From Spirochaetia bacterium (lineage in GTDB: Bacteria > Spirochaetota > Spirochaetia > CADAEX01): a DNA stretch of 64,000 nucleotides. This document shows positions 17,781 through 34,758 of the stretch, in pieces. The stretch spans positions 110 through 64,109 of the forward strand of contig JAVBQS010000110.1 of assembly GCA_031548835.1 (NCBI GenBank), written 5' to 3'. The position numbers and the translations under genes were made by a program. Positions within the stretch are counted from its first letter, which is position 1, and each line of letters starts with the position of its first letter. Below the pieces are notes generated by a model. The model saw nothing but the letters and a program-made list of their open reading frames with translations, ran no database searches and was not told the origin of the DNA.

Positions 17781-20405
17781 ATGTTTGCTTTTTTACATTC
17801 ATTGTTTATATGGCCGTTTCAGGTGTTTATAGAAATTTTTTTTATGATTTTTATAAAAATTTTACGAAATAATATAGGACTAATAATAATATTGTTAAGT
17901 GTTGTTCTGAATCTTTTTTTTATTTATTTTTATAAACCTTATAATTTTTTTTGTGTTAGTGAAATAAAAAATCCATTGTTAAAAAATATAGCCAATGGCA
18001 GAAAAATTGGTGAAAAAATTTCAGTAATTTTTTCAATTATAAAACCATATATATTTTTAATTCTTTATTCTTTTCTTTTTATTGCTGCCTATGATTATTT
18101 TATCAATACAACATATCTTGAAAAATCTTCTTTTTTTATTATAAAAGATTTAAATCAGCCGGATCAATTAATAAAAATTGGAACAGTTACTTTAAATCTT
18201 TTTCCTGTTTTAATGCTTATCTTTGCTATTGTTTCTGTATTTATTCCATTTATTTTATATAAAAGAAAAATTATTATTTGCCGTGCAGCAGCTTTTATAA
18301 TTTTGTTTTTACTATTCTTTTTTATTTTATATAACAGTCCTTCCGGGTTAGCTCTGTTTTGGATTGTGACAGGATTATTTTTATTATTTATAAATATTTT
18401 AAGCTCTTTAAAAAGTTCTGGAAAAATATTTAAAGCTCTGATTGTTTTTTCATGCATTCTGTTTTTATTGTTTTTTATAAAACGGTTTAATAATTTTAAA
18501 ATTAAATATATGATTGCGTTAATTGTTATAGATATAACAGTAATGCTGATAGCTTTAAAAAAAGAAGCAATAAAAAAGTTTTTTGAAAACAGCTGTTTTT
18601 TATCCAGGGATAAAGATCTCTGTAGTTTATACAAATATTCATCAATAATTCTTTTTATTCTTACAGGTCTTGCTGTTCCGTTTCTTCTATTAGCATCATC
18701 TCCAACAGAATTTGATAATCCAACAGATATGATTATAAGAACAATTCTTCAGGCAGGATCAATTTTTATTGTATTTTCATTTCTTGTATGGACTTTTTCA
18801 ACATTGCCTATGCGTAGGTTTTTATCTCTTTTTTTATCATTTATAGCAGTTCTTGCTTTTTTCTGTTGTTTTATTTTTATGGGAAAATATGGCGCTATGG
18901 CTCCTGGTTTTGTTTTTGATAGCTGGGAACAGTTTGATAGATCTAAAGATTTAATAAAAAGCATATTGGCAGTTGTATTATCTTTTTTGACAATATTTAT
19001 CATTTTCCGTATTAATAAGTTGCGCTGGCTAAAAGACGGATTTATAATATTGTGCTTGTCTTTAGTTGTAATGTCAGGAGTTAATTTATTTACAATTATT
19101 AAAGAATATACTCTTTTGAATTCCCGCTCAGACAGGCTTGCAGATAAAGATTCTTCGAATGAAAAAAGATATAATATTTTTAATTTTTCAAAAACAGGAA
19201 AAAACATTTTTATTTTATTTCTTGATAAAGCTCCTGGCCATACTTTCTCTTATGCTTTGGATTTAAAACCTTCTTTAAAAAAAGATTTTGATGGTTTTGT
19301 CTGGTATCCTAATACAATATCTTTTGGCCCTAATACATTGTTTGGACTTCCCGCAATGATTGGTGGATATGAGTACACGCCTCTCCAGATAAATGAACGT
19401 AAAAATATATCTCTTAAAGATAAAGTAAATGAATCACTCAAAGTGCTGCCTGCTATTTTTGGAGAAGCAGGATATAATGTTGTTGTTACAGACCCTTCAT
19501 ATTCTAATTTGTCGTGGATACCTGACACAAGTATTTATGATAGCATGGAAAATGTAAAAGCGTATAACATTACAGGAATTTTCAGAAACAGGTTTAACAA
19601 AGAAAATACAGAAAGAAACAAAGGATTTTCCAAAATCTTTGATCATGATATTATGATGAGATTTTCAATATTCAGAATTCTGCCGCCCTTTTTAAGGCCA
19701 TTATTATATTACGATGGAAACTGGTTAAAACTGGTTGGATCTTCAAGCTATAACCAATCTATAAAACATTATCCAAACCTTCTTTACCTTGAGGATTTGT
19801 GTAGTATTAATGATGCCGGAAATAATTTTAATATTATGATGAATGAAGCAACGCACAACCCTGGCCCGTATGATAAAAATTTTGAGCTCACTGCGAAGCC
19901 TGTTGAATATTCTGATGATGATATAAAAAAATTCGGCTCCAGCGGTAATGTAAAATATATTTATGCATATACAGCAGCTCTTTCTGCTATTTCCGGATGG
20001 TTTGAATGGCTGAAAAAAGAAGAAATATATGATAATACAAAAATTATTATAGTAAGCGATCACGGATGGTCTTTTAATGAAAAAATTCTTGATTCCTGGG
20101 TTCAGGAAAATTATAACCCGCTATTATTAGTAAAAGATTTTAATTCCAGGGGCTCTATAGTAAGGTCTGATCAATTTATGACAAACGCAGATGTTCCGGC
20201 AATAGCAGTTAAATCTTTGGATAATCCAATTAATCCATATACAGGGGAAACTATTGACAGTTCTCCTAAAGATGAAGAAATTTTTGTTGCTAGCGGACAT
20301 TGGGCTGTTAAAAGCCAAAAAGAAGATTCTCTTGTTATCGGAACAATTTTTGAAGTAAAAAATAAAAATATATTTGATTCTGAAAATTGGGTAAGTATAA
20401 AGTAA
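17781..20405 (+). CDS. Large polytopic membrane protein with C-terminal alkaline-phosphatase-superfamily phosphotransferase domain (paralog 1)
   Basis: About 470 aa with more than 10 TM segments, then 'NFSKTGKNIFILFLDKAPGHT', 'YPNTISFGPNTLFGLPAM', 'MNEATHNP', 'IIIVSDHGW' and 'FMTNADVPAIA'. Homologous to 28637..30898 and 32521..34758. Confidence 0.6.
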   Translation: MFAFLHSLFIWPFQVFIEIFFMIFIKILRNNIGLIIILLSVVLNLFFIYFYKPYNFFCVSEIKNPLLKNIANGRKIGEKISVIFSIIKPYIFLILYSFLFIAAYDYFINTTYLEKSSFFIIKDLNQPDQLIKIGTVTLNLFPVLMLIFAIVSVFIPFILYKRKIIICRAAAFIILFLLFFFILYNSPSGLALFWIVTGLFLLFINILSSLKSSGKIFKALIVFSCILFLLFFIKRFNNFKIKYMIALIVIDITVMLIALKKEAIKKFFENSCFLSRDKDLCSLYKYSSIILFILTGLAVPFLLLASSPTEFDNPTDMIIRTILQAGSIFIVFSFLVWTFSTLPMRRFLSLFLSFIAVLAFFCCFIFMGKYGAMAPGFVFDSWEQFDRSKDLIKSILAVVLSFLTIFIIFRINKLRWLKDGFIILCLSLVVMSGVNLFTIIKEYTLLNSRSDRLADKDSSNEKRYNIFNFSKTGKNIFILFLDKAPGHTFSYALDLKPSLKKDFDGFVWYPNTISFGPNTLFGLPAMIGGYEYTPLQINERKNISLKDKVNESLKVLPAIFGEAGYNVVVTDPSYSNLSWIPDTSIYDSMENVKAYNITGIFRNRFNKENTERNKGFSKIFDHDIMMRFSIFRILPPFLRPLLYYDGNWLKLVGSSSYNQSIKHYPNLLYLEDLCSINDAGNNFNIMMNEATHNPGPYDKNFELTAKPVEYSDDDIKKFGSSGNVKYIYAYTAALSAISGWFEWLKKEEIYDNTKIIIVSDHGWSFNEKILDSWVQENYNPLLLVKDFNSRGSIVRSDQFMTNADVPAIAVKSLDNPINPYTGETIDSSPKDEEIFVASGHWAVKSQKEDSLVIGTIFEVKNKNIFDSENWVSIK

Positions 20406-20412
20406 TAATTAT

Positions 20413-21564
20413 ATGCATAGTAATAAAAAAATAGATAAAATAAAAAAAATATTTTCTGATAAAAATCTTATTCAGATACTTTTCTGGTACAGAATTGTTA
20501 TGGTCTTTGTAATGGATTATTTTGTGAAAGATCTTACAAGAAGAGGAGATACACCCAAATATCTTTTTGCAAATCCTTTTGATCTTTTTAATACTTATGG
20601 ATTTACTCTTTTTTTAGATGATACCAGGCTTGTCCAGTTTTTTGTAAGTTCCATACAGATGCTTTTAAGATATGAAATTTTAACACATATTGTTTTTTCA
20701 CTGCTTGCTTTTTATGGAATAAAACATTTTTTAAATGCTGTTCCTGAAAAAAATAATAAATATTATAAAATATTGATTTTAATGATGTTTCTTCCATCGT
20801 TTACTTTATGGTCTTCTGTTGCAGGAAAAGAGCCTGTTGTTGTTTTTGCAATAGGAATAATATCTGCAGAAGTTGTAAGGTTTTTTTCAGGCGAAAAATT
20901 CAGAATATCTTTCTTAATGATTATTTCTTTTTATTTGATTTTAATAGTTAAACAGCAATATATTCCTGCTGTTTTTCAATTGGCTCTGTATATGATATTA
21001 AGGAGAAAAACAAAACTCTCATGGAAAGCAGATCTAGCTGTTTTGTCAGCAGTACTTACGGTAAATTGTTTATTAATTTATTTTTTTAGAGATAAAATTG
21101 ATTCATTTATTTTGGACCGGCTTTTTGATATGTTTGATGGAGATAGTGCGCGCTCAACAAGGGAAAGAGTTTTTATAGAACAGTATGATTTTTTCAAAAA
21201 AATGCCTTATTTATTGCCGCTTGCTGTTTGGGGGCCTACCTGGAGCGAAACAAAAATCTCAATACTCCATCTTTATGTTTTTGTAGAAAATTTAATTTTG
21301 CTTGGCGTTTATATATATCTTATAAAAGATTTTTTTCTTAAAATTTTTAAGAAATTTAATATATATTATCAATGGCTTTTTATTTCTGTAATTGCAGTAG
21401 GTTGGCTTTTTTTTGCTCAATATATGCAGGGAGTAATGAATCCCGGAGCTGCAATAAGGTATAGAACAAATATATATCTTCTGGTAACAGCATTATGGTA
21501 TTCTGTTACATGTGTAAGAGAACAGATTTCTCCTGAAAATAACTGCTCCAAAGATATTGTTTAA
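20413..21564 (+). CDS. Polytopic membrane protein, possible Wzy/EpsG-like repeat-unit polymerase
   Basis: About 10 predicted TM helices. Its size and its position after the paralog 1 gene fit a polymerase/ligase role. No diagnostic motif was recognised. Confidence 0.3.
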   Translation: MHSNKKIDKIKKIFSDKNLIQILFWYRIVMVFVMDYFVKDLTRRGDTPKYLFANPFDLFNTYGFTLFLDDTRLVQFFVSSIQMLLRYEILTHIVFSLLAFYGIKHFLNAVPEKNNKYYKILILMMFLPSFTLWSSVAGKEPVVVFAIGIISAEVVRFFSGEKFRISFLMIISFYLILIVKQQYIPAVFQLALYMILRRKTKLSWKADLAVLSAVLTVNCLLIYFFRDKIDSFILDRLFDMFDGDSARSTRERVFIEQYDFFKKMPYLLPLAVWGPTWSETKISILHLYVFVENLILLGVYIYLIKDFFLKIFKKFNIYYQWLFISVIAVGWLFFAQYMQGVMNPGAAIRYRTNIYLLVTALWYSVTCVREQISPENNCSKDIV

Positions 21565-21760
21565 CTAGATATAAAAAATAATATTTTTTATATAAAAAAC
21601 ATTATAAGATATTTTTATTTTATAGTTGAAAACTACATATAAAGTTGAAAATTCTGACAATAAAACAGTATAATGGAATTAAAATTATTACAAATGTAAT
21701 AATTTTTTATAAAATATTTGAAAAAGATAGGATTGTTAATTATTTCTTATGGAGTTATAG

Positions 21761-23068
21761 ATGAAAATAGCAATTATTGGCACAGGTTATGTTGGACTGG
21801 TTTCCGGCGCTTGTTTTGCAGAATTCGGATGGGATGTAACCTGTATTGATAAAAATAGTGAAAGAATCAATTCTCTTGAAAAAGGCATAATACCTATATA
21901 TGAACCAGGGCTTGAAGATCTTGTTAAAAAAAATGTAAAAGAAAGCCGTCTCAATTTTTCTCTTGAATATTCCCCATATGTTGAAGATGCAGATATTGTT
22001 TTTATTGCAGTAGGGACTCCTTCAAGGCGCGGAGATGGTTATGCAGATCTTACCTATGTTTATGAAGCAGCCAAAGAAATAGCTTCACATTTAAAAGGCT
22101 ATACTGTAATTGTTGATAAAAGCACTGTCCCTGTGGGTACAGCCAGGAATGTTGCAAAAATAATAAGAGCTGAAAATCCAGCAGCAGAATTTGATGTTAC
22201 ATCAAACCCTGAATTTTTGCGGGAAGGATCAGCTATCGGCGATTTTATGCGCCCGGACAGGGTTGTTCTTGGCGTTGAAAGTGAGAAAGCAGAGGAGATG
22301 CTTAGAGAGCTTTACAGGCCTCTTTATTTAATTGAAACACCAATGGTAATAACAGGGCTTGAAACAGCAGAGCTTATTAAATATGCTTCCAATGCTTTTC
22401 TCGCTGCTAAAATTTCTTTTATAAATGAGATAGCAAACCTTTGTGAAAAAGTAGGCGCTGATGTTAAAGATGTTTCAAAAGGAATGGGGCTTGATAAAAG
22501 AATAGGCCCTAAATTTCTTCATGCCGGGCCCGGTTATGGAGGTTCATGTTTTCCAAAAGATGTCAGCGCGCTTGTCAAAATTTTCCATGATAATGGAATG
22601 ACTGCCAGAATTCTTGAATCAGTTATTAATGTAAATAATTCCCAGAAATCTCTTATGGTTAACAAAATTCGCGAAGCGCTTGGCGGCAGCGAATATAAAA
22701 AGACAATTGCTTTTCTTGGACTTACCTTTAAACCTGAAACTGATGATATGAGAGAAGCTCCTTCTCTTACAATTATTCCTGCTCTTCTGAACGGCAATGC
22801 TGTTATTAAGGCGACAGATCCTGAAGGAATAGAGGAAGCAAAAAAACTGCTTCCTTCTGAAATCAATTATTATAATGATCTTTATGAAACATGCAAAAAT
22901 GCTGATGCAGTTGTTATTCTTACTGAGTGGAATCAATACAGGGCAGTTGATTTTGAAAAGTTAAAGAAAATAATGAAAGACAATATATTTATTGATCTTA
23001 GAAATATATATAATAAGGATATAGTTGAGAAAGCAGGGTTTAAATATATTTCTGTCGGCCGAAAGTGA
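21761..23068 (+). CDS. ugd: UDP-glucose 6-dehydrogenase
   Basis: 'MKIAIIGTGYVGLVSGACFAEFG' Rossmann N-terminus. Catalytic Cys context 'GGSCFPKD'. Length 435 aa. Confidence 0.9.
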   Translation: MKIAIIGTGYVGLVSGACFAEFGWDVTCIDKNSERINSLEKGIIPIYEPGLEDLVKKNVKESRLNFSLEYSPYVEDADIVFIAVGTPSRRGDGYADLTYVYEAAKEIASHLKGYTVIVDKSTVPVGTARNVAKIIRAENPAAEFDVTSNPEFLREGSAIGDFMRPDRVVLGVESEKAEEMLRELYRPLYLIETPMVITGLETAELIKYASNAFLAAKISFINEIANLCEKVGADVKDVSKGMGLDKRIGPKFLHAGPGYGGSCFPKDVSALVKIFHDNGMTARILESVINVNNSQKSLMVNKIREALGGSEYKKTIAFLGLTFKPETDDMREAPSLTIIPALLNGNAVIKATDPEGIEEAKKLLPSEINYYNDLYETCKNADAVVILTEWNQYRAVDFEKLKKIMKDNIFIDLRNIYNKDIVEKAGFKYISVGRK

Positions 23069-23077
23069 GGAATTAGT

Positions 23078-23542
23078 TTGAATTATAACAGATGTGCTGT
23101 AAATGGCGTTTTTGATCTTTTTCATGTCGGGCATGTGAGGCTTTTAAAAAGAGCAAAAGAGATGTTTAAAGAAGTAGTTGTTACTGTAGATTCTGATGAA
23201 CTTACAACAAAAGAGAAAAGAAAACCTATTTTTAACCAGGATGAACGGATTGAAATATTAAAAGCGTGCCGCTATGTTGCTGATGCAGTTATTGTTGACA
23301 GATCCTGGGGCCCGCATGCATTTGATCCTGAAAAAGTAGATGAATTTATGAATCAATATAATATAGATGCAGTTTTTGTTGCTGCTGATGATGATGAATA
23401 TGTAAAATACTGGTTTGGCTATCTTTACAGCCAGGGAAAAGTTATCATTGTTCCAAGAACAAAAGATGTATCAACTACACATGTTATTAAGGTTGTTAAC
23501 GGAGAAATTGTTAAAGAACTTGAGGGAAATTGTAAGGAGTGA
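23078..23542 (+). CDS. Glycerol-3-phosphate cytidylyltransferase-like (TagD family) cytidylyltransferase
   Basis: 'GVFDLFHVGHVRLLKRAKE' (HxGH). 'RYVADAVIV'. C-terminal 'PRTKDVSTTHVIK' parallels TagD 'RTEGISTT'. TTG start after a GAGGAA SD. The substrate (glycerol-3-P versus another alcohol phosphate) is not resolved. Confidence 0.75.
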   Translation: MNYNRCAVNGVFDLFHVGHVRLLKRAKEMFKEVVVTVDSDELTTKEKRKPIFNQDERIEILKACRYVADAVIVDRSWGPHAFDPEKVDEFMNQYNIDAVFVAADDDEYVKYWFGYLYSQGKVIIVPRTKDVSTTHVIKVVNGEIVKELEGNCKE

Positions 23543-23545
23543 TAA

Positions 23546-24487
23546 TTGAAAAAAATAGTTGTTACAGGCGGGGCAGGATTTATTGGTTCTCATTTATGTG
23601 AAAGGCTTTTAAAAGAAGGTAACGATGTTATATGTCTGGATAATTTTTTTACAGGCACTAAAAAAAACATAAGCCATCTTATTGGAAATCCTTTTTTTGA
23701 ATTAATGCGGCATGATGTAACTTTTCCTCTATATGTGGAAGTTGACCAGATATATAACCTGGCTTGCCCTGCAAGTCCTGTCCATTATCAATTTGATCCT
23801 GTGCAGACAACAAAAACATCGGTTCATGGAGCAATCAATATGCTTGGTCTTGCAAAAAGAACAAAAGCAAGAATATTGCAGGCTTCAACTTCTGAGGTAT
23901 ATGGAGATCCTGAAGTTCATCCTCAGAGGGAAGATTACTGGGGGCGGGTTAATCCAATTGGAATTAGAAGCTGTTATGATGAAGGAAAAAGATGTGCAGA
24001 AACTCTTTTTTTTGATTATTACAGGCAGCATAATGTTGATATAAAAGTTATCAGAATATTTAATACTTATGGGCCAAATATGCATCCTAATGATGGGCGG
24101 GTTGTAAGTAATTTTATTGTACAAGCTCTTAAAGGTAACGATATTACAATTTACGGAGATGGTAATCAGACAAGGTCTTTTTGTTATGTTGATGATCTTG
24201 TTGAAGGTTTAATTAAAATGATGAAAACAGAAAAAGATTTTACCGGACCTGTAAATCTTGGCAATCCAGGAGAGTTTACAATGAATCAGCTTGCAGAAAT
24301 TGTTATAAAATTGACAGGATCAAAATCAAAAATAAAATATTTTCCATTGCCGCAAGATGATCCGAGGCAGAGAAAACCAGATATTGCAAAAGCTCAGCAG
24401 TATTTGAACTGGAAACCGCTTGTTGAGCTAGAGGAAGGACTTGAAAAAACAATTCAATATTTTAAGAAAACTATTAATACAAAATGA
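23546..24487 (+). CDS. UDP-glucuronate decarboxylase (UDP-xylose synthase)
   Basis: Near-textbook UXS sequence: '[17 protein letters not shown]', '[27 protein letters not shown]', '[11 protein letters not shown]', '[11 protein letters not shown]'. TTG start after a GGAG SD. Confidence 0.9.
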
Positions 24488-25953
24488 GTAATTTTAGCAG
24501 TCAAAGTTTTTTTAATCTTGTTTTTGTTTATGCTGGTGTTTTTTTAGGGTTTATTAATACTATTTTAAAAACAAAAGTTTTTTCTACAGAAGAAATAGGA
24601 GTTGTTACTATAACAACAACACTTTCCATTTTTTTGGTATTTTTAATTTCTTATGGTTTTTTGTCAGGGACAAGACGGTTTTACAGCAGGTTTAAAGATA
24701 ATGTTGCTGAGAAAACAGGTTTTATTATAATAAATTTATTGGTTTCTCTTATCTTATACTGTTTTGCAAGTGTAATATTTTTTCTTTTAAAATCTTTTAT
24801 TCTGGAAAAATATAACAATCTATTGTTTGAAAGATATTTTAACGCTGTTTTTTTGTTTTTTATTGGCAATCTTTTAACAAGTTTTTTTCAATATATTTTT
24901 GAGAGTGAATACAGATCACTCCTGGGAAATATATACTATGATATAATTCATCGTATTCTTCATTTTTTAGTATTAATTTATATGCTTAATACTAATAGCA
25001 GTTTTTATTGGTATATATTCTTTCTTGTAATTTCTCTTTTTCTTAATATTTTATTTTATCTTGCAATGGGATTTAAGCTTATAAAGCTTGGGAAACCATC
25101 TTTCGCTATAATAACACGCAGTTTTATCATAGAATATTTAAAATACTGTTCTCTAACTTTTTCTTCTGGAATGACAGGTCTGGTAACTGAAAATATAGAC
25201 AAAGTTATGATTGGGGCATATCTTTCAATGTCAGATCTTGGAATATATTCTATTGTTGTTCAAATTGCTATGCTTATAAAAATAATGAAAAATGGATTTA
25301 TAAGAATAGCTTATCCTTCTATTGCTGAAGCATGGGAGAAAAAGGATAGTAAGAAAATTCAAAATATCTATAAGGAAAATTCTGCTATACAAATATTTTT
25401 GGGATCTTTCATTTTTGTTTTTATTTTTCCAAAACAAATAATGTCTGTACTTAGCCCTGAATATATTAAGGGCAGTAATATTCTTATTGTAATATCATTT
25501 GCTTATCTTTTAGATCTTTCAACAGGAATGAGTGAGGGTATAATATCATTGTCCAGATATTATTATTTTGATCTCTTTTTAAGAATACTTCTTGTGCTGC
25601 TTACAATAATTACAAATATAATAATGATTCCTTTTTGGGGTTTACTTGGAGCTGCTGCCGCAACTACTTTGACAATATTGATTTATAATATATTAAAATT
25701 AATGTTTATAAAAATAAAATTTTCAATGAACCCTTTTTCTTTTGATACAATAAAAATAATATTTTTAATTTTATTTATAGGATTTTGTTTCTTTTTTCTT
25801 TTAAAAAAAATCAATATAGAGTTAAATATTTTTAATATAATATTTTTATTTATAATTGTTTTTATTTTATATGTTATAATTGGAAAAAATATTATAAAGA
25901 TAAGTTTTTTGAACAAAATTAAAATATGTAATAAAATTAAGAGAAAAAAATAA
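24484..25953 (+). CDS. wzx: Wzx-like polysaccharide flippase (MOP superfamily)
   Basis: 489 aa with about 12-14 TM helices. Position in the cluster fits a flippase. ATGA overlap with the upstream gene. Confidence 0.65.
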
Positions 25954-25962
25954 AAATTATAT

Positions 25963-26512
25963 AGTAACCTTCCCCATGGTCTGCATGGAATTGCCCAAGA
26001 TGGTAATCCAATAAAAGATACAAATAATATTAGCTCCTCTGCAACAGCATATTATTCAGCAAAGAAATTCACAGATGTAATGGGGAACTGGATAAAATGG
26101 ATGAAAAATAATAATGTTTATGACAATACTATGATAATTATTGTATCTGATCATGGAAATACTTTAAACGATAATGATATTAAGCTACCAGAACAACTAG
26201 ATGATGTAAAAAATCTTAGAAATATATCCAGTGTACAATCTCTTTTGCTTGTAAAAAGGTTTGGGAGCAGCGGGGGAGTAAAAATTGGTCATGCAAGAGT
26301 AAGTCCTACTGATGCACCTGTAATATTATAAGCAGAAACAGGAATTGATTTCCCGTTTGAATACGATTTATATTCTAGTAATAAACGTATTTATAGTGAT
26401 AATAAGGGTCATTTTCTAAAAGTAGATACCATAAAGTACAATTCATACAAAGTAAATGGTACAATATTTGATCCTGATTCATGGGGTATTTATGATAATA
26501 AAAAACAATAGG
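25963..26512 (+). pseudogene. 5'-truncated, disrupted remnant of an alkaline-phosphatase-superfamily membrane transferase paralog (C-terminal ~180 codons)
   Basis: The translation 'HGLHGIAQDG...AYYSAKKFTDVMGNWIKWMKNNNVYDNTMIIIVSDHGNT...LLVKRFGSSGG...' aligns with the C-termini of 28637..30898 and 32521..34758. It begins 10 bp after the wzx stop with no N-terminal part. There is a stop at 26331 and then a frame change to '...DPDSWGIYDNKKQ*'. Confidence 0.75.
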
Positions 26513-26674: not shown

Positions 26675-27943
26675 ATGAAACTGTATTTAACTTTAATATT
26701 TTTTGCTGTAACTGTATCACCTGCTTTTTGTTATATAGATCCAGGAACAGGCAGCATGCTTCTTTATGCTATTATTGGCATAGGCGCTGCATTGCTCTAT
26801 GCGTTTAAAGGATATTTTTACAAGCTTAGAGGCAAAATTACAGGCAAGGGATATAATCTTGATTCAGATTTATCTGAATTTGATTTTGTATTTTATTCTG
26901 AAAGTAAAATATATTGGAATGTATTTAGCCCTGTGCTTGAAAACCTTGATAAATCAGGTAAAAAATGTATCTATTTGACCTCAAGCGAGGATGATCCGGG
27001 GTTGGCCTATAAATCAGACAATATTAAATCAAAATATATTGGAGAAGGAGTAAGGGCTGCATCATATCTTAACAATATAAAAGCAGATATTGTAACAATG
27101 ACAACACCGCAGCTTGACGTGCTTACTCTTAAAAAATCAAAAAAAGTTAATCATTATTCCTATATTTTTCATGCTCCAACAGATATTGGAATCTATGGTA
27201 AATATGCATTTGATAATTTTGATTCAATGTTCTGCGTAGGAAAACATCAGATAACTCATATCAAAGAATTTGAAGAAAAAAGAAAAACAAATAAGAAAAA
27301 GCTGTTTGAAACAGGCTGCACATACTATGATGTTTTATTAAAGAAAGAACAGCGGGCAGAAAAGAATGAAAAACCTGTAATTCTGGTTGCTCCTACATGG
27401 AATAAAAACAGCCTTCTTGCAAGATTTGGCTTTAATATTTTAAAACCTCTTTTAACAGGAAAATATAAAGTTATATTAAGGCCACATCCCCAAATGTATA
27501 TTTCCCAGAAAAAACTTATTGAAGAGATAAAAAAAGAAAGCAGCAGTTATCCAGATCTTGTCTGGGATGAAAAGCCATCAGGCGAGGATTCAATGAATGA
27601 ATCAGATATATTGATATCAGATTTGTCCGGAATAATTTTTGACTATTCATTTGTTTTTAAAAAACCTGTAATTTCAATTGATGCTCCTGTTATTGAAACA
27701 GGCCTCGAGCTTGAAGATATGAAAAAAGATGAATTATGGGAACTTAATATTAGAAGCAAACTTGGAAAACTTGTTAAAGAGCAGGATATTTCTAATCTTC
27801 CTGTATATGTTGATGAAATGCTTTTATCATTCAGCAAGGAAAATATTGAAAATATAATAAAAGAAAATATTTACAACTTCGGCAATGCAGGGCCTGTTGC
27901 TGCTAGGCAGTTGGCTGAACTAAAGGAAAATTTGAAAAAATAA
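26675..27943 (+). CDS. TagB/TagF-like CDP-glycerol glycerophosphotransferase family protein
   Basis: N-terminal membrane anchor. 'ILVAPTWNKNS' (TagF 'PTWR'-like) and 'VILRPHPQMY' (catalytic His region). C-terminal 'DILISDLSGIIFDYSFVFKKPVI'. Confidence 0.6.
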   Translation: MKLYLTLIFFAVTVSPAFCYIDPGTGSMLLYAIIGIGAALLYAFKGYFYKLRGKITGKGYNLDSDLSEFDFVFYSESKIYWNVFSPVLENLDKSGKKCIYLTSSEDDPGLAYKSDNIKSKYIGEGVRAASYLNNIKADIVTMTTPQLDVLTLKKSKKVNHYSYIFHAPTDIGIYGKYAFDNFDSMFCVGKHQITHIKEFEEKRKTNKKKLFETGCTYYDVLLKKEQRAEKNEKPVILVAPTWNKNSLLARFGFNILKPLLTGKYKVILRPHPQMYISQKKLIEEIKKESSSYPDLVWDEKPSGEDSMNESDILISDLSGIIFDYSFVFKKPVISIDAPVIETGLELEDMKKDELWELNIRSKLGKLVKEQDISNLPVYVDEMLLSFSKENIENIIKENIYNFGNAGPVAARQLAELKENLKK

Positions 27944-28632
27944 TGTCAAAAATTCTTTACTATATTTTTATATTTCCGCTTGAAAGCGGAATGAAATTTA
28001 TCTTTCTTGGCGCTTATAATCTTTTTAATAATTACGGCATATCAATAATAATGATGAGTCTTGCTGTCAATATTGTATTGCTCCCGCTATATTATCTTGC
28101 AGAACAGTGGCAGGGTAAAGAACGGGAGATAAAAAAGAAAATGCAGCCTGAACTTGATAAAATAAAAAATGCTTTTAAGGGAGAAGAACGTTACTACTAT
28201 ACAAAAGCTGTATATAAGAGATTTCATTATCATCCAATAAATTCAATACGTGTAAGTTTTGGTTTTTTGATTCAGGTTCCTTTTTTTATTGCAGCATACC
28301 ATTTTATGTCACATTATGAAGGTATAAGCGGTATAAGTTTTTTATTTATAAAAGATTTATCTCTGCCAGACAAAATGCTACAGTTCAAACAGCTTAGTAT
28401 AAATATTCTTCCTTTTATTATGACATTTATAAATATTTTGTCTGCATATATTTATACAAAAAACTTAAACAGAAGCGATAAAATTCAGTTATGGCTTTTA
28501 GCTTTTCTATTTTTAGTTCTTTTATATAATGCTCCTTCTGCTCTTGTTTTATACTGGACGCTAAATAATATTTTTTCTCTAATTAAAAATAGTTTAAGTG
28601 TATATGTTTTTAAATTTAAATATCTTACATAA
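27943..28632 (+). CDS. YidC/Oxa1-family membrane insertase-like protein (short form)
   Basis: Aligns with the YidC core: 'ISIIMMSLAVNIVLLPLYYLAEQ' (TM), 'MQPELDKIKNAFKGE' (the LQPK...K helix), 'FGFLIQVPFFIAAYHFM' (like 'LLIQMPIFLALYYML') and 'APSALVLYWTLNNIFSLI' (like 'PSGLVLYYIVSNLVTI'). The conserved Arg of the first core TM helix is Asn here. Confidence 0.7.
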   Translation: MSKILYYIFIFPLESGMKFIFLGAYNLFNNYGISIIMMSLAVNIVLLPLYYLAEQWQGKEREIKKKMQPELDKIKNAFKGEERYYYTKAVYKRFHYHPINSIRVSFGFLIQVPFFIAAYHFMSHYEGISGISFLFIKDLSLPDKMLQFKQLSINILPFIMTFINILSAYIYTKNLNRSDKIQLWLLAFLFLVLLYNAPSALVLYWTLNNIFSLIKNSLSVYVFKFKYLT

Positions 28633-28636
28633 AATT

Positions 28637-30898
28637 ATGAATAATAAAAAAATATACATACGATTTAACCAAATTTTTTCTAAGAAGATAGAGAAAAATG
28701 CAGTCTATATGTTGACCGCATTTGTTATTTATTTTCTTATCTATTTTATTTATTATAAATATTCAGATACCAGAAATCTTTCTTTTGTATTAATAATTAT
28801 TGGATTTTCAAGTCTTAATATTTTGCTGTATAATTATCTAAATAAGAAAATAAAAAAATCTATTATAGAAAAGATTATAATAGTTATTAGTTTTTTAGCA
28901 TTAGCCGGATTGATTATCTTATTTTTCGACTGGTTATTTAAAATTAATATATTTGCTGATAAAATATATTTTAGACGTTATATTCTTGCCTTATTTTTTT
29001 TACAGACAATGGTTCTCTATCTTCCTTTTTTAAAAGATTTTGTAAAAAGTACAAATGAGAACGATAATATAAATATTAACTCTTCTTTATTTTATTTTGC
29101 ATTGTTATATATACTTTTTGTTATTTTTTTATATACTCCAACAGCTGTTTTTTCAACAGCTCCGGATGATTTTGATATTTCTTATATTAATATTATTCTT
29201 CCTGCAGCAGCAATTATTGCTATTTTATTTTTCTTGTTTGCAATTATATATAAGCTGATTGGCTGTAAATATAAAAATTTTTTTACTGTTTTAATTACAA
29301 TTTTTTCTGTATTATGCTTTGTTTATTCATATCTGTATCCTGGACAATATGGTTCGCTTAACTCTTTTCTTCTTTCTAATTCAGAAAATTTATATGGCAA
29401 TGTTTACAATTATCTTCTGGAATATTTTATATTATTAATAATTATCTGTTTTGTTGTTGTTTCAGTAAAAAAATATAATCATATAGCAAGAAATGTTTTA
29501 ATACTGCTTAATATTGTTGCTTTTTTACAATTTTCTTACTCAACTTTCTCAATTTATTCATCTAAACGTAATAATTTATTGAACACCCAAAAAACGGAAA
29601 ATTCTATTATTCTGCCTTCGTATAACGAAGAATTAATGAGTTTTTCCAAAACAGGAAAAAATATAATTGTTCTAATGCTTGATATGTTTTCAGGCGGGTA
29701 TATGGAAGAAATATTACAAGAAGATTCTGAGATAGAAAAAATTTATGAAGGATTTATATGGTATCCTAATACTTTGTCTATTTCTTATGTTACAAGCAGC
29801 AGTATTCCTTCAATGCAGGCTGGCTGGAAATATACGCCTGATGAGATTAATCGTACAAATAAAAAAAATACACTAGTTAAAATTATTGGCGATTCCTACA
29901 AAATATTACCAGAAATTCTATCTAAATATAATTACAAATCTGCTTATATTGACCCGGATTATTGCTATACATATCGCGGAGATATTTCAGAATTAAATAA
30001 GGCAGGAATTCTTGGCGGATTTAATAAAGATTATGTTGAATACTGGAAGAATAAAAATATGAAAGAATATAATAATATTTTTCCTGAAAAAAATAGAAAT
30101 AATGAATTAAAACTTCTTTTAATGGTAAGTATTTTTAAAGCTTCTCCAATTCTTGTAAAGCCTATAATATATGATAATGGTAATTGGATAGTAATTAAAA
30201 GCAGCGACCGTGAAAATTCTGCTTTTATGTCAAAGATAGAATATTGGTCTTTTATTGATTCAATGCCGCAGATATCAAATATAAATGAACAGAAGAATAC
30301 TTATAAATTTATAAAAAACAGTATTGCACATGATCCTTTCTCTTTAAGTAAGGATGGTAAATTAATTCTTGGTTTTCCTGATCCTGATGCAAAAGATAAT
30401 TTCCATGGAAAAAATGCTTACTATAGTGCAAGAGGAAGTCTTATCGCTATAGGAAGATGGCTTTCCTGGCTTAAAGAATCAGGAATATATGATAATACAA
30501 AAATAATAATAGTTTCTGATCACGGAAATGATCTTACTCAAGATCCCATGATGAAAAAAGATTTTAATGTAGATGGTATTTCTGGAGAAGAGTTTAATAG
30601 AATTCATGCTCTTTTGATGGTTAAAGATTTTAATAAAAAAGGTTTTCTAACAATTGATAATAGATTTATGAGCAATGCAGATGTTCCTGCAATTGTGTGT
30701 TCAGATTTTGATAAGAAAGGCGATATTATCTCAGACCCAACAAAACAGTTAATTGAGAATCGCGTGCTTAAAACCATGCGGGCTGAAAGCTGGAAATGGC
30801 ATTATATTTCTAAACATACAAAATTTAAATTTAAATGGAATTATGAAGTAAAAAATGATATGTTTGAATCACAAAATTGGGAAAAAGTTAATTACTGA
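28637..30898 (+). CDS. Large polytopic membrane protein with C-terminal alkaline-phosphatase-superfamily phosphotransferase domain (paralog 2)
   Basis: Start MNNKKIYIRF at 28637; the ORF is open from 28598. Motifs: 'FSKTGKNIIVLMLDMFSGGYM', 'YPNTLSISYVTSSSIPSMQAG', 'IAHDP', 'KIIIVSDHGND', 'FMSNADVPAIVC'. Confidence 0.6.
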   Translation: MNNKKIYIRFNQIFSKKIEKNAVYMLTAFVIYFLIYFIYYKYSDTRNLSFVLIIIGFSSLNILLYNYLNKKIKKSIIEKIIIVISFLALAGLIILFFDWLFKINIFADKIYFRRYILALFFLQTMVLYLPFLKDFVKSTNENDNININSSLFYFALLYILFVIFLYTPTAVFSTAPDDFDISYINIILPAAAIIAILFFLFAIIYKLIGCKYKNFFTVLITIFSVLCFVYSYLYPGQYGSLNSFLLSNSENLYGNVYNYLLEYFILLIIICFVVVSVKKYNHIARNVLILLNIVAFLQFSYSTFSIYSSKRNNLLNTQKTENSIILPSYNEELMSFSKTGKNIIVLMLDMFSGGYMEEILQEDSEIEKIYEGFIWYPNTLSISYVTSSSIPSMQAGWKYTPDEINRTNKKNTLVKIIGDSYKILPEILSKYNYKSAYIDPDYCYTYRGDISELNKAGILGGFNKDYVEYWKNKNMKEYNNIFPEKNRNNELKLLLMVSIFKASPILVKPIIYDNGNWIVIKSSDRENSAFMSKIEYWSFIDSMPQISNINEQKNTYKFIKNSIAHDPFSLSKDGKLILGFPDPDAKDNFHGKNAYYSARGSLIAIGRWLSWLKESGIYDNTKIIIVSDHGNDLTQDPMMKKDFNVDGISGEEFNRIHALLMVKDFNKKGFLTIDNRFMSNADVPAIVCSDFDKKGDIISDPTKQLIENRVLKTMRAESWKWHYISKHTKFKFKWNYEVKNDMFESQNWEKVNY

Positions 30899-30921
30899 TA
30901 TATAAAAAGTATAAAAGATTA

Positions 30922-31929
30922 TTGAAAATGAAAATAAATATTAAAAAATTTAAAAAACATTTATCAATTGCTCTTGCAAATATAAGAGTGCTATTTATTA
31001 TTTTTTTCCTGCAAAAAAAAGCATGGAAAAAAAGTGATGTTGATTTTGTATGGAATAGAAAATTTGCAGAGATTTGCAGTTGTTATCCTTTCTTTTTCCC
31101 ATATAAGATTGTCAGCAAAAATATATTTAAAATAGAACGGCGAATTATTGATTATTTTTCATATAGACAAATCAACAAAAAAATAAAAGAAAATAATCTG
31201 GTATATGTTTCTCTTGATAGTATGGATTATTTTAAAAGAAGCATATTAAAAAAAATCAATAGCAGCTTTATTTTAATAACAGGAGATTCTGATTTAACAC
31301 CATCTGAACACAAAGAGTTGCTGGATAATAAAAATATTCTCCATTGGTTTGCCCAGAATTGTGACATAAAGCATCCAAAGATTTCCAGTTTACCAATAGG
31401 CCTTGATTACCACACAATTGCCACATATTCCCATTGGGGAAGCAAGCGCATTTCTCCAAAAGAACAGGAACAGGAATTACTTGATATTAGAAAGACTGAT
31501 ATAAAAAAAGAACTTAAAATATTTACAAATTTTCATTTAAATATCAATTCTCCTGCAAGGGAAAGACTTTATAAAGAACTTAAAGGAAGCAGTTTATTTT
31601 TTTTCCAGGAAAAACCTTTATCCCGAACTGAAACATGGAAGATTCAAAGAAAATATAACTTTGTTTTTTCTCCTGCCGGGGTTGGAATGGATTGTCACAG
31701 GACATGGGAAGCTTTAATTCTTGGGTGTATACCTATTGTAGAAACAAGTTTTCTTGATAATCTTTACTCGGAATTTCCAATCGTAGTTATAAAAAATCCT
31801 AATGATATAACTGAAGAAAATTTATTAAAATGGTCTATTCTATATAAAAATAGTTTTGATAATAATCTTGAATTAAAGTTAAAAAATAGATATTGGATTG
31901 AGAAAATCAAAAGCACACAGAAAAAATAA
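30922..31929 (+). CDS. Hypothetical protein, possible glycosyltransferase (unassigned family)
   Basis: One N-terminal TM. Acidic 'LITGDSDL' motif and C-terminal 'SPAGVGMDCHRTWEALILGCIPIV' resemble a sugar-transferase C-terminus. A xylosyltransferase would be expected given the UDP-Xyl branch. This is speculative. Confidence 0.3.
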   Translation: MKMKINIKKFKKHLSIALANIRVLFIIFFLQKKAWKKSDVDFVWNRKFAEICSCYPFFFPYKIVSKNIFKIERRIIDYFSYRQINKKIKENNLVYVSLDSMDYFKRSILKKINSSFILITGDSDLTPSEHKELLDNKNILHWFAQNCDIKHPKISSLPIGLDYHTIATYSHWGSKRISPKEQEQELLDIRKTDIKKELKIFTNFHLNINSPARERLYKELKGSSLFFFQEKPLSRTETWKIQRKYNFVFSPAGVGMDCHRTWEALILGCIPIVETSFLDNLYSEFPIVVIKNPNDITEENLLKWSILYKNSFDNNLELKLKNRYWIEKIKSTQKK

Positions 31930-32129
31930 TGTAGCTGTAAAAATTTTGAATTTATTAAAAAACCAAGTTTTGTATAATTCATTATATTTGCAAGCTGGAG
32001 AAGATTATAATTATTGTTTTTTTTATTCGTTCTTTTGTATGGCTGTTTCAGGCTTTTATAGATTTTTTTATGATTTTTACAAAACTTTTGAAAAATCATA
32101 TTTGTATATAAATATAGTATATTTTTCTT

Positions 32130-32458
32130 TTTTGGCCTCTTAATAATAATACCAAAATTATTATTTTTAGTTACCATGGTGGGTATTCTGATATGAAAGC
32201 GCTTCCCGTGCAGGCAACGCTTAATAAAAACCATTTTGCTGGTAAAGGATTTTAATTCCAGTGGGTTTATGTTAAAATCAGATAAATTTATGACAAATAT
32301 AGATGTTTCAGCAATAGCCGTAAAATCTTTAAAACAGACAATTAATCTGTATACAGGAAGCGAAAAAACAGAAAGAAGATTTTCTTGTTATTAAAAGGAC
32401 AACAGAAATAAAAAGCAAAAATATCTTTGCCGCGAAAAATTGGGTACAAGTAGAATAA
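32130..32458 (+). pseudogene. Decayed C-terminal remnant of a paralog-1-type alkaline-phosphatase-superfamily transferase
   Basis: 'WPLNNNTKIIIFSYHGGYS' versus paralog 1 'YDNTKIIIVSDHGWS' (the catalytic Asp is Tyr here). 'TILLVKDFNSSGFMLKSDKFMTNIDVSAIAVKSL' versus 'PLLLVKDFNSRGSIVRSDQFMTNADVPAIAVKSL'. The terminal 'KNIFAAKNWVQVE*' versus 'KNIFDSENWVSIK*'. Several frameshifts and an internal deletion are present. Confidence 0.75.
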
Positions 32459-32520
32459 AAATAGTTGTTAGAAGTAAAAAATATGATTTTTAGTAATTTT
32501 TTACAGGAGAGGGGTATAGA

Positions 32521-34758
32521 GTGTTAAAATTTTTAAAAAAATATCAATCATCTTTTGTTTTATCTATTTTATTTTTTGCATTTTATATGCTCATTTTTTA
32601 TAAAATAGATCAATATTCCGGCAGCCGATTTAGTTATTATATTTTTGCATGCGGCAGTTTATTAATTTTGGATATTTGTTTGTTTATAAATATATTTTTT
32701 AGATATCGTGACAAAAAGATTAATAATTTTTTCTTTTATGTCACAACTTTAATTTTTTTTATAATTATTTTATTAACAACAGATTGGATATTTAAGTTAA
32801 ATATTTTTACATCAAATTATAAATTTAAAATAATAATATTGTTTTTTCAGCTATTATATATTTTTATTATTTTGGGATATTTTATTGGAAAAAGTATTTT
32901 TAACGCTGAACTTTTTCCAAAGAGTGAAAAAATAAAAATTACTCAAATAATAAGTGTTGTTTTATATATCAGTTTGATTCTTTTTCTTATGACACCTTTG
33001 AGATTATATGCAACATCGCCCGGAGAAGTTGAAATAGCTTTTATTAGTCTTTTAAAAGCATGTGTTATTAATTTTGTTATATCTTTAATTATCCTTTTTT
33101 TTGTATTTTTTATATTTCCAGGATTTTTAAAAAAGTATTTAACAGTGTTTTTATATTTTACAGCAGGGTTCATCTTTTTTTACATATTTATTTTTCCTGC
33201 AAATTATGGAGCTCTTGATAATTTTGTGTTGAAAAATGCGGATAATCTTTATGGCGTATTTTATAAAAATGTAATAGAAGCATTTTTTATAATTTTGTTA
33301 TGGCATGTAGTTTTATATTTTATTAATCATAAAAAAATAAAAATTCTGGCAATTGCTTTTTTTATACTTTCTGCAGTTGCTTCAATAGAATCTGTTGTTG
33401 TTTTTGCTAAAGGAAAAAGTTTGCTTTCTGTAAATAATACAAATAATACAAATAATACAACTGGAGACCTTCTACCTGCTTACAATTATAAAATGATGGG
33501 ATATTCCAGAACAGGAAAAAATATTGTTGTTATTCTTTTTGATATGATGACAGGCGGTGATATTCCGAGAATTTTTAAAGAACATCCTGAATTGGCAGAG
33601 ACATATAATGGATTTATATGGTATCCAAACACGCTTACTGTTGGCGACAATACAGCAACAAGTATGGCGTCAATGTATGGTGGGAAAATATATTCGCCGG
33701 CAGAAATCAATAAGAATAATTTTAACAAATCACTTCTTGAGATTATTACAGAAAGTTATGAAGTATTGCCTAATTTACTAAAAGAAAAAAATTATGTAAC
33801 AGCTTATACAAATCCGGAATATTATTTTTCTCCGCGTGGAGATGTTGATGTTTTAAATAAAAAAGGAATTATAGCAGGTTTTAATAAAGATTATGTTCCA
33901 TATTGGAAAAATATAAATCGAGAAAAGGAAGAATATGTTGCCAAATTTGATACGACATCAATCCGTCTTCTTACAATGGTTTCGTTATTTAAAGCTTCTC
34001 CTGTTTTATTAAAATCAATTATTTATGATAATGGAGATTGGCTGATTATCGAAAAAGATGAGATAAAAAATAAAGCATATAATTTTGCTCTTGAATCCTG
34101 GGCTTTTCTCGATCTTATGAAAGATATATCAAATACAAATGAAACTCAAAATACTTTTAAATATTTTCATAATTATATTACACATGAACCATATGCAATG
34201 AGCAAAGAAGGTGTTTTACAAAAAGAAGAATATCCTGACCCATCTGCGGGCGATAATATTCATGGGGATAATGCATATTACAGTGCAAAAGCTGCTATTT
34301 TAGCAACTGCAAGGTGGATTGATTGGCTGAAAAAAGAAAAAATTTATGATAATACAATGATAATTCTTGTTTCTGATCACGGGCACCCATTTACTGAAAG
34401 TCCTATGATAACTCCTGATTTTAAAAATCAGGATATTACAAGCAATATTTTTACAAGATCTCAGGCATTTTTAATGGTTAAAAAATTTAATAATGATAAA
34501 GATTTTAAAACAGATTGGAGGTTCATGAGTAATGGAGATATTCCCTCAATTATTTGTGAAGCTGCAGGTATTTATAATGAAAAAATTGGCAAAGATCCGA
34601 CAACAGGAGAACCATTGCAAAATAGAGTTCTTGATACTTTTCGTACAAAAAGTTGGCGGTGGGAACATCTTGTCCGGAGTTCTAAATTTGATGTGGTATG
34701 GCACTATCAGGTAAAAGACTCTATATTTAATGATAAGAATTGGACTAAAATTAAATAA
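32521..34758 (+). CDS. Large polytopic membrane protein with C-terminal alkaline-phosphatase-superfamily phosphotransferase domain (paralog 3)
   Basis: GTG start. Motifs: 'YSRTGKNIVVILFDMMTGGDIP', 'YPNTLTVGDNTATSMASMYGG' (EptA-like Thr nucleophile context), 'ITHEP', 'MIILVSDHGHP', 'FMSNGDIPSII'. Contains an in-frame 9-bp x3 tandem repeat. Confidence 0.6.
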   Translation: MLKFLKKYQSSFVLSILFFAFYMLIFYKIDQYSGSRFSYYIFACGSLLILDICLFINIFFRYRDKKINNFFFYVTTLIFFIIILLTTDWIFKLNIFTSNYKFKIIILFFQLLYIFIILGYFIGKSIFNAELFPKSEKIKITQIISVVLYISLILFLMTPLRLYATSPGEVEIAFISLLKACVINFVISLIILFFVFFIFPGFLKKYLTVFLYFTAGFIFFYIFIFPANYGALDNFVLKNADNLYGVFYKNVIEAFFIILLWHVVLYFINHKKIKILAIAFFILSAVASIESVVVFAKGKSLLSVNNTNNTNNTTGDLLPAYNYKMMGYSRTGKNIVVILFDMMTGGDIPRIFKEHPELAETYNGFIWYPNTLTVGDNTATSMASMYGGKIYSPAEINKNNFNKSLLEIITESYEVLPNLLKEKNYVTAYTNPEYYFSPRGDVDVLNKKGIIAGFNKDYVPYWKNINREKEEYVAKFDTTSIRLLTMVSLFKASPVLLKSIIYDNGDWLIIEKDEIKNKAYNFALESWAFLDLMKDISNTNETQNTFKYFHNYITHEPYAMSKEGVLQKEEYPDPSAGDNIHGDNAYYSAKAAILATARWIDWLKKEKIYDNTMIILVSDHGHPFTESPMITPDFKNQDITSNIFTRSQAFLMVKKFNNDKDFKTDWRFMSNGDIPSIICEAAGIYNEKIGKDPTTGEPLQNRVLDTFRTKSWRWEHLVRSSKFDVVWHYQVKDSIFNDKNWTKIK
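33434..33460 (+). repeat. In-frame tandem repeat (aataataca)x3 encoding NNT-NNT-NNT
   Basis: Exact 9-bp triplication inside paralog 3, in the linker between the membrane and catalytic domains. Confidence 0.8.

Follow-up and report, generated by a model that had tools for sequence, protein, structure and literature searches.

An Arg-less YidC-like module, a TagF-like gene and alkaline-phosphatase-superfamily proteins inherited together in bacterial glycan loci

What are several large membrane proteins with an alkaline phosphatase (AP)-superfamily domain doing inside one bacterial glycan locus, and which genes accompany them? The question is raised by four genes, here called A to D, on a 64,000-nucleotide stretch of DNA from a Spirochaetia bacterium (GenBank assembly GCA_031548835.1, contig JAVBQS010000110.1, positions 110 to 64,109 of the forward strand), hereafter the window. 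The window has a G+C content of ~30% and spirochaete-like relatives, the best named of which is a Spirochaetaceae metagenome-assembled genome at 66% identity. A first-pass annotation, made from the letters alone, had described A to D as four full-length paralogs with more than ten transmembrane (TM) helices, had likened them to EptA/MCR-1 and OpgB, and had proposed that they decorate the lipooligosaccharide (LOS) or another glycan with phospho-substituents. All four open reading frames (ORFs) are present. Three parts prove to be inherited together as a cassette: a TagF-like enzyme, a YidC-like domain with a seven-helix membrane core (7-TM core), and an AP domain with a Thr nucleophile. The features on which the argument turns are as follows.

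4172..5842, + strand: gene A, 556 aa (567 aa from a GTG at 4139), five TM helices and an AP domain
17781..20405, + strand: gene B, 874 aa, a fusion of a YidC-like domain, the 7-TM core and an AP-superfamily domain
17781..18416, + strand: YidC/Oxa1-like domain of B (aa 1-212), with the groove Arg replaced by Asn44
18417..19142, + strand: 7-TM core of B (aa 213-454), common to C and D, helices from an AlphaFold2 (AF2) model
19143..20402, + strand: catalytic domain of B, predicted periplasmic, AP superfamily, with D482, T519, H692-x-P, D760-H761 and K785
26675..27943, + strand: TagF-like (Glyphos_transf) gene, first gene of the cassette (PF04464, 54.2 bits against 22.1, E 1.5e-14)
27943..28632, + strand: free-standing gene for a YidC-like protein of 229 aa, immediately before C, with the groove Arg replaced by Asn
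28637..30898, + strand: gene C, 753 aa (766 aa from a GTG at 28598), TM helices and an AP domain, no YidC domain
32521..34758, + strand: gene D, 745 aa, TM helices and an AP domain, no YidC domain

A cassette conserved across phyla

In the window the cassette genes abut one another, running from the TagF-like gene (26675..27943) through the YidC-like gene (27943..28632) to C (28637..30898), and the YidC-like ORF ends 4 bases before the ATG of C. Residues 1-212 of B match this free-standing ORF (29% identity, E 1.7e-10, tblastn), so that a single architecture occurs fused in B and split in the ORF with C. The two forms alternate across loci elsewhere. Among 73 distinct loci, nearly all copies of the AP gene are either YidC-fused or directly preceded by a YidC-like ORF of 230-250 aa, and tandem arrays of 2-4 copies are common.

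The TagF-like gene is the most constant neighbour of these arrays. Every glycan-locus protein of the window was searched against the loci of homologs; TagF-like homologs (E 1e-45 to 1e-197) recur in 46 of the 75 loci, and the next window genes reach 14. Loci were counted as fully flanked if each side of the array had 1.4 kb of sequence or more; in 29 of 38 such loci (76%), the array is directly adjoined, at one end or the other, by a TagF-like gene of the same strand. The first-pass annotation had placed the TagF-like gene among the partners of A to D, and the link is stronger than it supposed. The loci that carry the cassette span many phyla, at least eight. The order TagF-like gene, YidC-like gene, AP-family relative is found in L004, L036, L042, L045, L063, L069 and L074; the first of these, from a Spirochaetia genome, reads TagF-like, YidC-like, C-like, D-like, an arrangement like that of C and D in the window. 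One TagF-like gene often accompanies 2-4 tandem AP genes.

The TagF-like proteins form a subfamily with an N-terminal YIDPGTGS motif of its own, a single TM helix and a positively charged stretch. Because this helix follows the positive-inside pattern, the catalytic domain is placed in the cytoplasm. RPHPQ and SD.SG..FD, which we take to be the catalytic motifs of TagF, are kept in 40 homologs. TagB, TagF and TarF resemble the window protein in the Glyphos_transf domain, in the HP and SD.SG..FD motifs and in the TagD-like gene of the same locus; they differ in that the TagF-like protein has the YIDPGTGS motif and a TM anchor, and in that some phyla carry phosphonate supply genes instead. A search of PDB sequences with the TagF-like protein returned nothing significant, the solved TagF and TarL included, and its score against the TarF equivalog model is 25 bits (cut-off 550).

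The YidC-like module is recognizable by several profiles. The free-standing ORF scores 87.9 bits against PF02096 (cut-off 35, E 9.5e-25) and 95.5 bits against TIGR03592 (cut-off 84.3), and it matches Bacillus halodurans YidC2 (3wo6) with an E value of 1e-11. B alone scores 24.9 bits against 60KD_IMP (E 2e-5), below the cut-off; a B-family profile matches Escherichia coli YidC with an E value of 1e-12 over the whole five-TM core. Like YidC, SpoIIIJ and Oxa1, the module keeps the PL-Y, QxPFF, DL..PD and PSxLxLYW regions of a five-TM core. Unlike them, it has no P1 domain and no groove Arg, it is joined to an enzyme or encoded beside one, and loci hold several copies of it. The groove Arg (R72 of YidC2, R366 of E. 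coli YidC) aligns with Asn in both the ORF and B. In 97 YidC-like domains from the 73 loci, this column holds Ser in 50, Asn in 35, Thr in 9, Gln in 1, Phe in 1 and a gap in one; neither Arg nor Lys occurs there in any of the 97. The domain is nevertheless strongly conserved across phyla (E 1e-50 to 1e-100 over ~210 residues). The equivalog models are missed by a wide gap, the best YidC model scoring 76.5 bits (cut-off 891) and the SpoIIIJ model 69.8 bits (cut-off 377).

Relatives of the window proteins are numerous. A word-indexed search found more than 141 B-type homologs of ~900 aa, including proteins of Treponema denticola, T. primitia, Gracilinema and Brachyspira; it also gave 13 D-type matches and 35 A-type matches, the latter all named 'hypothetical'. 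A profile search without the YidC part reached 1,585 clusters at 50% identity (E <= 1e-30) and 4,701 at E <= 1e-10, and most of its top matches carry an N-terminal extension of 150-400 residues. A scan of one genome per species gave 403 relatives. They are found in Spirochaetes, Bacteroidales, Nitrospirae, Chlorobiota, Acidobacteria, Myxococcales and the gamma-, alpha-, delta- and epsilon-proteobacteria, the proteobacterial carriers including Photobacterium, Azospirillum, Steroidobacter, Helicobacter and Desulfovibrionaceae.

Those B-type homologs that bear a name are called 'YidC/Oxa1 family membrane protein insertase' in NCBI and UniRef. This label misleads, since the thousands of members of this family that carry it are almost certainly surface-glycan-modifying enzymes. 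A full-text literature search with partial coverage returned no description of a YidC-AP fusion or of the cassette. One example of the labelling comes from a T. denticola contig (L001, 5283..11947): two YidC-AP paralogs in tandem (895 and 904 aa), with a TagF-like gene after them, lie inside a GT2/GT25/Bac_transf glycan locus, all under the annotation 'membrane protein insertase YidC'.

Architecture and active site of the AP proteins

B, C and D are full-length paralogs by BLAST, with identities of 26-36% and E values of 1e-53 to 1e-163 overall. C and D share 36% identity over their full length (E ~1e-161), B and C 27% (E 1e-55 to 1e-58), and B and D 29% (E 1e-53 to 1e-60), residues 219-874 of B aligning with 76-745 of D. 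A had been counted as a fourth paralog of the same kind; as a simple paralog it was rejected, its best BLAST match in a four-sequence database having an E value of 0.001, and it is linked to the others by profile and fold only. An hhalign comparison of 33 A-type with 94 B-type homologs gave a probability of 91.8% (E 7.5e-7) over 403 columns, in a register that sets D199, T241, H428 and D485-H486 of A (556-aa numbering) on D482, T519, H692 and D760-H761 of B. The Arg-less YidC-like domain of the cassette also occurs in fusion with one A-type homolog, P0141 (827 aa). The P0141 gene lies in a stretch of L076 (282..3882), where it overlaps the end of a gene for a 375-aa thiamine pyrophosphate (TPP) enzyme resembling phosphonopyruvate decarboxylase and is followed by a Bac_transf gene.

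The membrane portions of the four proteins are not alike. The AF2 model of B, built with 94 homologs, has 12 membrane helices followed by an alpha/beta domain (pLDDT 89.1, pTM 0.86), and that of A has five TM helices and an AP domain (pLDDT 89.1). Hydropathy gives ~10 helices for C and for D. The earlier count of more than ten helices thus holds for B, holds roughly for C and D, and fails for A. The large size of these proteins had been compared with that of OpgB, but the layout is another one: in B the extra length comes from the five-TM YidC/Oxa1-like domain and the 7-TM core. No Pfam family matches the region of this core in B, and even with the --max option of hmmsearch no trace of a YidC domain came up at the N-terminus of C, D or A. 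A YidC domain ends in the cytoplasm; because seven TM helices follow it in B, the AP domain is placed in the periplasm.

The Thr-nucleophile context, the His-x-Pro motif and the (V/Q)SDHG metal site read from the letters were found in all four proteins. Among 107 family members from many phyla, N475 (B numbering) is conserved in 100%, D482 in 99%, H692 in 97%, D760-H761 in 99% and K785 in 97%, so that the metal-ligand set, whose absence would have counted against the family, is kept in 97-100% of the homologs. The nucleophile column (T519 of B) holds Thr in 101 of the 107 (94%) and Ser in 5; the first metal-ligand column holds Asp in 106. No C/S-x-P/A-x-R formylglycine motif occurs in A to D by a regular-expression scan, and its absence together with the Thr nucleophile rules out a formylglycine sulfatase. 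Pfam places B, C and D just above the cut-off of the Sulfatase family PF00884 (32.0, 30.2 and 38.5 bits; cut-off 25), and A has no Pfam or NCBIfam match.

Membership of the named families is another matter. EptA_B_N (PF08019) does not match any of the four at E <= 1, nor does any OpgB or LtaS model of Pfam or NCBIfam. The first ligand is Glu in EptA and MCR-1; here it is Asp, and the Glu/Thr/Asp/His Zn site of these enzymes is not present. Of the Mn-site residues of LtaS and GacH, Thr, Asp and His are found, with Asp in place of Glu. Single-sequence searches of PDB sequences returned no similar protein of known structure. LtaS is reached by profile (E 9e-4 to 4e-3 for B, 0.05 for A), in local matches around the DH motif. 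Given the marginal Pfam scores and the lack of a PDB sequence match, the family is very divergent from the characterized AP enzymes.

The fold is clearer than the sequence. Foldseek of B against the PDB retrieved PbgA/YejM, full-length MCR-1, LtaP, LtaS and many S1 sulfatases, with a probability of 1.00, E values of 2e-8 to 1e-5, identities of 10-16% and TM-scores of 0.34-0.57. For A, full-length EptA (5fgn, E 3.4e-7) and MCR-1 (9nww, E 4.8e-7) came out on top. By sequence and model, A to D are predicted to be membrane-anchored AP-superfamily enzymes with a Thr nucleophile; since the fold and the D/T/H/DH site are intact, they appear catalytically competent, and are neither sulfatases nor a degenerate PbgA-like domain. 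The class includes the phospho-group transferases LtaS, GacH and EptA, and A to D look like such transferases. In general terms, the first-pass reading of A to D as glycan-decorating transferases of the AP superfamily is sound; EptA and OpgB are resemblances rather than family assignments.

Three known systems bear comparison. GacH and SccH, like B, C and D, combine a polytopic membrane domain (11 TM helices in GacH) with an extracytoplasmic AP domain that has a Thr nucleophile and an Asp-His pair; their genes also lie inside a glycan locus, and what they decorate is a glycan and not lipid A (bioRxiv 10.1101/337519). GacH differs in having Glu488 at the first ligand where the present family has Asp, in lacking a YidC-like domain and a TagF-like partner, in the absence of a significant sequence match (it does not appear among the PDB sequence matches), and in its phosphatidylglycerol (PG) donor, as against the CMP-activated pathway coupled here. 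LtaS and LtaP share the AP fold (Foldseek E 4e-7 for B, 1.5e-5 for A), the Thr nucleophile and a chemistry with a covalent glycerol phosphate (GroP)-enzyme, and A has their layout of five TM helices and an AP domain. They differ in identity (9-15%), TM-score (0.4-0.5) and Glu versus Asp, and B, C and D have 10-12 TM helices. EptA, MCR-1 and EptC give A its best full-length fold and stand among the top matches of B, and they share the Thr nucleophile, His-x-Pro and Asp-His. EptA and MCR-1 differ in that PF08019 is not found here, Asp stands for Glu, the partner genes are others, TM-scores are 0.38-0.58 and identity is 10-16%.

Donor supply, proposed mechanism and rivals

What the cassette transfers is suggested by the genes that supply it. 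The window holds one such gene and no phosphoenolpyruvate (PEP) mutase.

23078..23542, + strand: TagD-like cytidylyltransferase, 154 aa (PF01467, E 2e-21)

This TagD-like enzyme is the probable source of a CDP-activated donor in the window, and its gene supports CDP-glycerol as the candidate donor of the TagF-like enzyme. Its score against TIGR01518, the glycerol-3-phosphate cytidylyltransferase model, is 76 bits (cut-off 165).

Other loci have a different supply. Enriched among the first to third neighbours are iron-dependent alcohol dehydrogenases (Fe-ADH, 8), NTP_transf_3 (8), PEP_mutase (8), TPP enzymes (7) and CTP_transf_like (7). In loci of Bacteroidales/Salinivirgaceae (L024, L036 and L041, also L049, L055 and L060), three supply genes are followed by a TagF-like gene and then by 1-3 YidC-AP genes. 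The first of the three encodes a 433-aa fusion of a cytidylyltransferase with a PEP mutase, the second a 375-aa TPP decarboxylase and the third an Fe-ADH. In L016, where a TagF-like gene is missing from the surrounding 6 kb, the same three come directly before the YidC-AP gene. The 433-aa fusion is Fom1-like in layout, Fom1 being, as we understand it, a cytidylyltransferase-PEP-mutase fusion that makes cytidylyl-2-hydroxyethylphosphonate. The best match of the Fe-ADH is the phosphonate-associated PsrA/PhpC type, and Fe-ADHs like PhpC form 2-hydroxyethylphosphonate by reducing phosphonoacetaldehyde (PMC8942020). Together the supply genes look like a pathway to a CMP-activated phosphonate of the cytidylyl-2-hydroxyethylphosphonate type. 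'Multiple sulfatases' have been reported next to ppm in some clusters, and the steps that attach phosphonates are an acknowledged gap (PMC8942020, PMC6697681). Since one and the same cassette is found with differing donor genes, it appears to be a generic device for CMP-activated phospho- or phosphono-alcohols. The conserved CMP-dependent partner genes also argue that the donor may not be bulk phospholipid.

These observations can be put together as a trans-membrane relay, to which we give slightly less than an even chance. A cytidylyltransferase, TagD-like in the window, would make a CMP-activated phospho-alcohol in the cytoplasm, probably CDP-glycerol. The TagF-like enzyme, anchored by its one N-terminal TM helix, would then put the head-group on a membrane lipid carrier, and the hydrophilic groove of the YidC-like domain, with the 7-TM core, would move or present this polar head-group to the outer leaflet. 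There the Thr of the AP domain would attack the phosphorus, forming a covalent intermediate from which a hydroxyl group on the LOS or glycan would take up the substituent. One donor pathway would feed all the paralogs, each a transferase specific for its own acceptor, and the surface decoration would change as copies are gained, lost or decay. Two of these steps have precedents: grooves of the YidC family are reported to scramble lipids (PMC11997395), and GacH and LtaS show Thr-phospho-intermediate chemistry, with phosphatidylglycerol as the donor (bioRxiv 10.1101/337519). The proposed relay would also be analogous to GtrA/B/C and ArnC/E-F/T, in which a cytoplasmic enzyme that loads a lipid carrier, a small flipping module in the membrane and a polytopic periplasmic transferase of variable acceptor specificity act in turn and several transferase paralogs use one donor pathway; these systems differ in belonging to unrelated protein families and in transferring a sugar rather than a phospho- or phosphono-alcohol.

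In its broadest form, the reading holds that the cassette is a machine not recognized before, spanning phyla, by which phospho- or phosphono-alcohols activated in the cytoplasm (GroP in the window, 2-hydroxyethylphosphonate in Bacteroidales) reach periplasmic glycoconjugates by way of a lipid-linked intermediate, with the YidC/Oxa1 fold repurposed from protein insertion to the movement or presentation of a lipid head-group; taken as one, these statements are put forward only tentatively. The conserved coupling of an Arg-less YidC-like domain, an AP transferase and a TagF-like gene suggests the recruitment of an insertase fold to small-molecule chemistry on lipids. More generally, the B/C/D family and its cassette suggest an undescribed route for the decoration of bacterial surface sugars, and there is a substantial chance that the whole system is a new kind of pathway. 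Were the broadest reading true, phosphonoglycans would gain the attachment step that they now lack, and an Oxa1-superfamily domain would for the first time have a described enzymatic partner.

Several points weigh against a lipid-linked relay. To our knowledge, no lipid-linked intermediate of this kind has been described. TagB/F enzymes normally use sugar or glycerol hydroxyls of lipid-linked glycans, and not a bare carrier. A shared flippase would need one YidC copy per locus, and most AP copies carry their own. The YidC-fused loci L010, L015, L016 and L030 have no TagF-like gene within 6 kb, and D and A, like loci L026, L035, L038 and L040, have no YidC-like part. The score of the TagD-like enzyme lies below the glycerol-3-phosphate cytidylyltransferase cut-off, so that the head-group is only a candidate, and the AF2 models were read as summary numbers.

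Some of these points favour a simpler account, in which the AP proteins are ordinary LtaS/GacH/EptA-type enzymes that take GroP or phosphoethanolamine (PEtN) directly from bulk PG or phosphatidylethanolamine of the outer leaflet to decorate the LOS or glycan, the TagF-like enzyme independently adds cytoplasmic GroP to that same glycan, possibly as a primer, and the YidC-like domain serves only the insertion, folding or anchoring of the large polytopic protein. The nearest folds, EptA/MCR-1, LtaS/LtaP and PbgA, are those of phospholipid users, and the 11-TM, LtaS-like GacH decorates a glycan from PG (bioRxiv 10.1101/337519). D, A and a few loci without the YidC-like part or the TagF-like gene fit this account as well, and a YidC-like domain of its own on each fused copy would suit a role in cis in biogenesis or structure. 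However, the account offers no reason for one specific TagF-like subfamily to adjoin the array in 76% of the fully flanked loci, across eight or more phyla. Bulk phospholipids would not carry 2-hydroxyethylphosphonate, and the Bacteroidales cassettes sit behind a complete phosphonate-activation pathway; the groove Arg, moreover, is lost in 97 of 97 domains whose other parts are strongly conserved, which argues against a standard insertase role. As a whole, this combination of claims seems to us unlikely, though a serious contender.

The same cassette evidence, namely the abutting TagF-like gene and the phosphonate-fed loci, would also fit polymer ligases or polymerases. Here the TagF-like enzyme would make, in the cytoplasm, a lipid-anchored chain of poly(glycerol-phosphate) or poly(phosphonate) for export by the YidC-like domain and 7-TM core; the AP domain would then either hand the chain over en bloc to a periplasmic or outer-membrane acceptor or lengthen it there, so that a diderm would bear a polymer resembling teichoic acid. 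The TagF family does contain polymerases. T. denticola, with its two tandem copies and TagF-like gene, has an unusual glycolipid that replaces lipopolysaccharide (PMC3285142). Against such a polymer, the window holds an ATP-binding cassette (ABC) system and a Wzx-like flippase, which might themselves export glycans. The TagF-like protein has, at ~420 aa, what we take to be the size of the TagB primase and not that of the polymerases TagF and TarL, and we know of no YidC groove that passes long polymers. The polymer scheme in all its parts is accordingly held to be improbable.

Still more doubtful is a role in removal, with the AP domains as periplasmic phosphodiesterases, phosphonate-ester hydrolases or sulfatases that trim substituents. 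Pfam does assign the Sulfatase family, and the Foldseek and profile matches include sulfatases and phosphonate monoester hydrolases, but the formylglycine motif is missing, the nucleophile is Thr, the membrane-tethered polytopic layout is typical of transferases, and the genes sit in biosynthetic loci beside donor-synthesis genes and not catabolic ones. That the public annotation is right, and these are true YidC/Oxa1 insertases with a passenger domain, is very improbable: the names in NCBI and UniRef and the free-standing ORF's passing of TIGR03592 speak for it, while the YidC equivalog scores far below cut-off, the Arg-less groove of 97 domains, the lack of a YidC part in C and D and the multi-copy arrays inside glycan loci speak against it.

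Paralog turnover and neighbouring genes

The window also records the loss of such genes. Two decayed copies lie among the intact ones.

25963..26500, + strand: pseudogene remnant 1, a 3' fragment of a further paralog, with VSDHG kept and an in-frame stop at 26332..26334
31898..32455, + strand: pseudogene remnant 2, an internally deleted and frameshifted B-like copy, with SDHG changed to SYHG, between C and D

Remnant 1 lies between the Wzx-like and the TagF-like genes and matches C (E 3e-15) and D (E 5e-13) by tblastn. Remnant 2 has 55% identity to residues 751-873 of B across three frames (tblastn), and a 5' DNA repeat joins 17837-17888 in B with 32063-32114 in the remnant. The first-pass suggestion of surface variation through paralog divergence is supported, in the form of paralog turnover, by these two copies and by the tandem arrays of other genomes. 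Phase variation at homopolymers was considered and rejected: no tract of at least 9 A/T or at least 7 G/C lies within or just upstream of the four genes. Recent gene conversion has left no sign either, as the repeats between paralogs are 68-85% identical and are short, motif-coding stretches. Variation here is the result of gain, loss and decay of genes rather than of switching. Four live and two dead paralogs in this organism point to a variable anionic decoration of the LOS or glycan, which bears on charge, on the binding of cations and on how phages and hosts recognize the cell.

The placement of A to D inside a glycan locus, as first described, is confirmed by the genes around them: glycosyltransferases (GT) of families GT2, GT4, GT9 and GT25, heptose genes of HldE, HldD, GmhB and GmhA type, and Wzx-like, Bac_transf, TagD-like and TagF-like genes. 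No tRNA gene was found by a scan of the window. Five ORFs of the locus, of 324-443 aa, match no Pfam or NCBIfam family (90..1064, 13970..15301, 20413..21564, 30922..31929 and 42141..43169). Those at 20413 and 30922 come directly after B and C, respectively, and the one after C (30922..31929) has a weak RXYLT1_C/GT47-like match only (E 1e-4).

A few features lie further from the cassette. In a 433-aa GT4 protein (1848..3149), the Glycos_transf_1 domain (aa 177-330) precedes a partial Glyco_transf_4 domain (aa 354-428), a reversal of the usual order. A LolCDE-like set stands in the middle of the locus (10408..16011) and comprises two FtsX-type permeases, a LolA_like protein, an unassigned 443-aa ORF and, on the opposite strand, an ABC ATPase. 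The divergent intergenic space between the ABC ATPase gene and a Bac_transf gene holds a 44-nt direct repeat (16115..16271), its copies 84% identical and 113 nt apart. At the end of the glycan locus, a GmhA-like SIS-domain gene (43248..43817) is found just before a pair encoding a 377-aa CotH-kinase-like protein and a DUF4956 protein (43841..45758). Another protein, of 915 aa (50248..52995, - strand), combines 4Fe-4S, [FeFe]-hydrogenase large-subunit, Hpt and histidine-kinase ATPase domains and looks like a hydrogenase-like sensor kinase.

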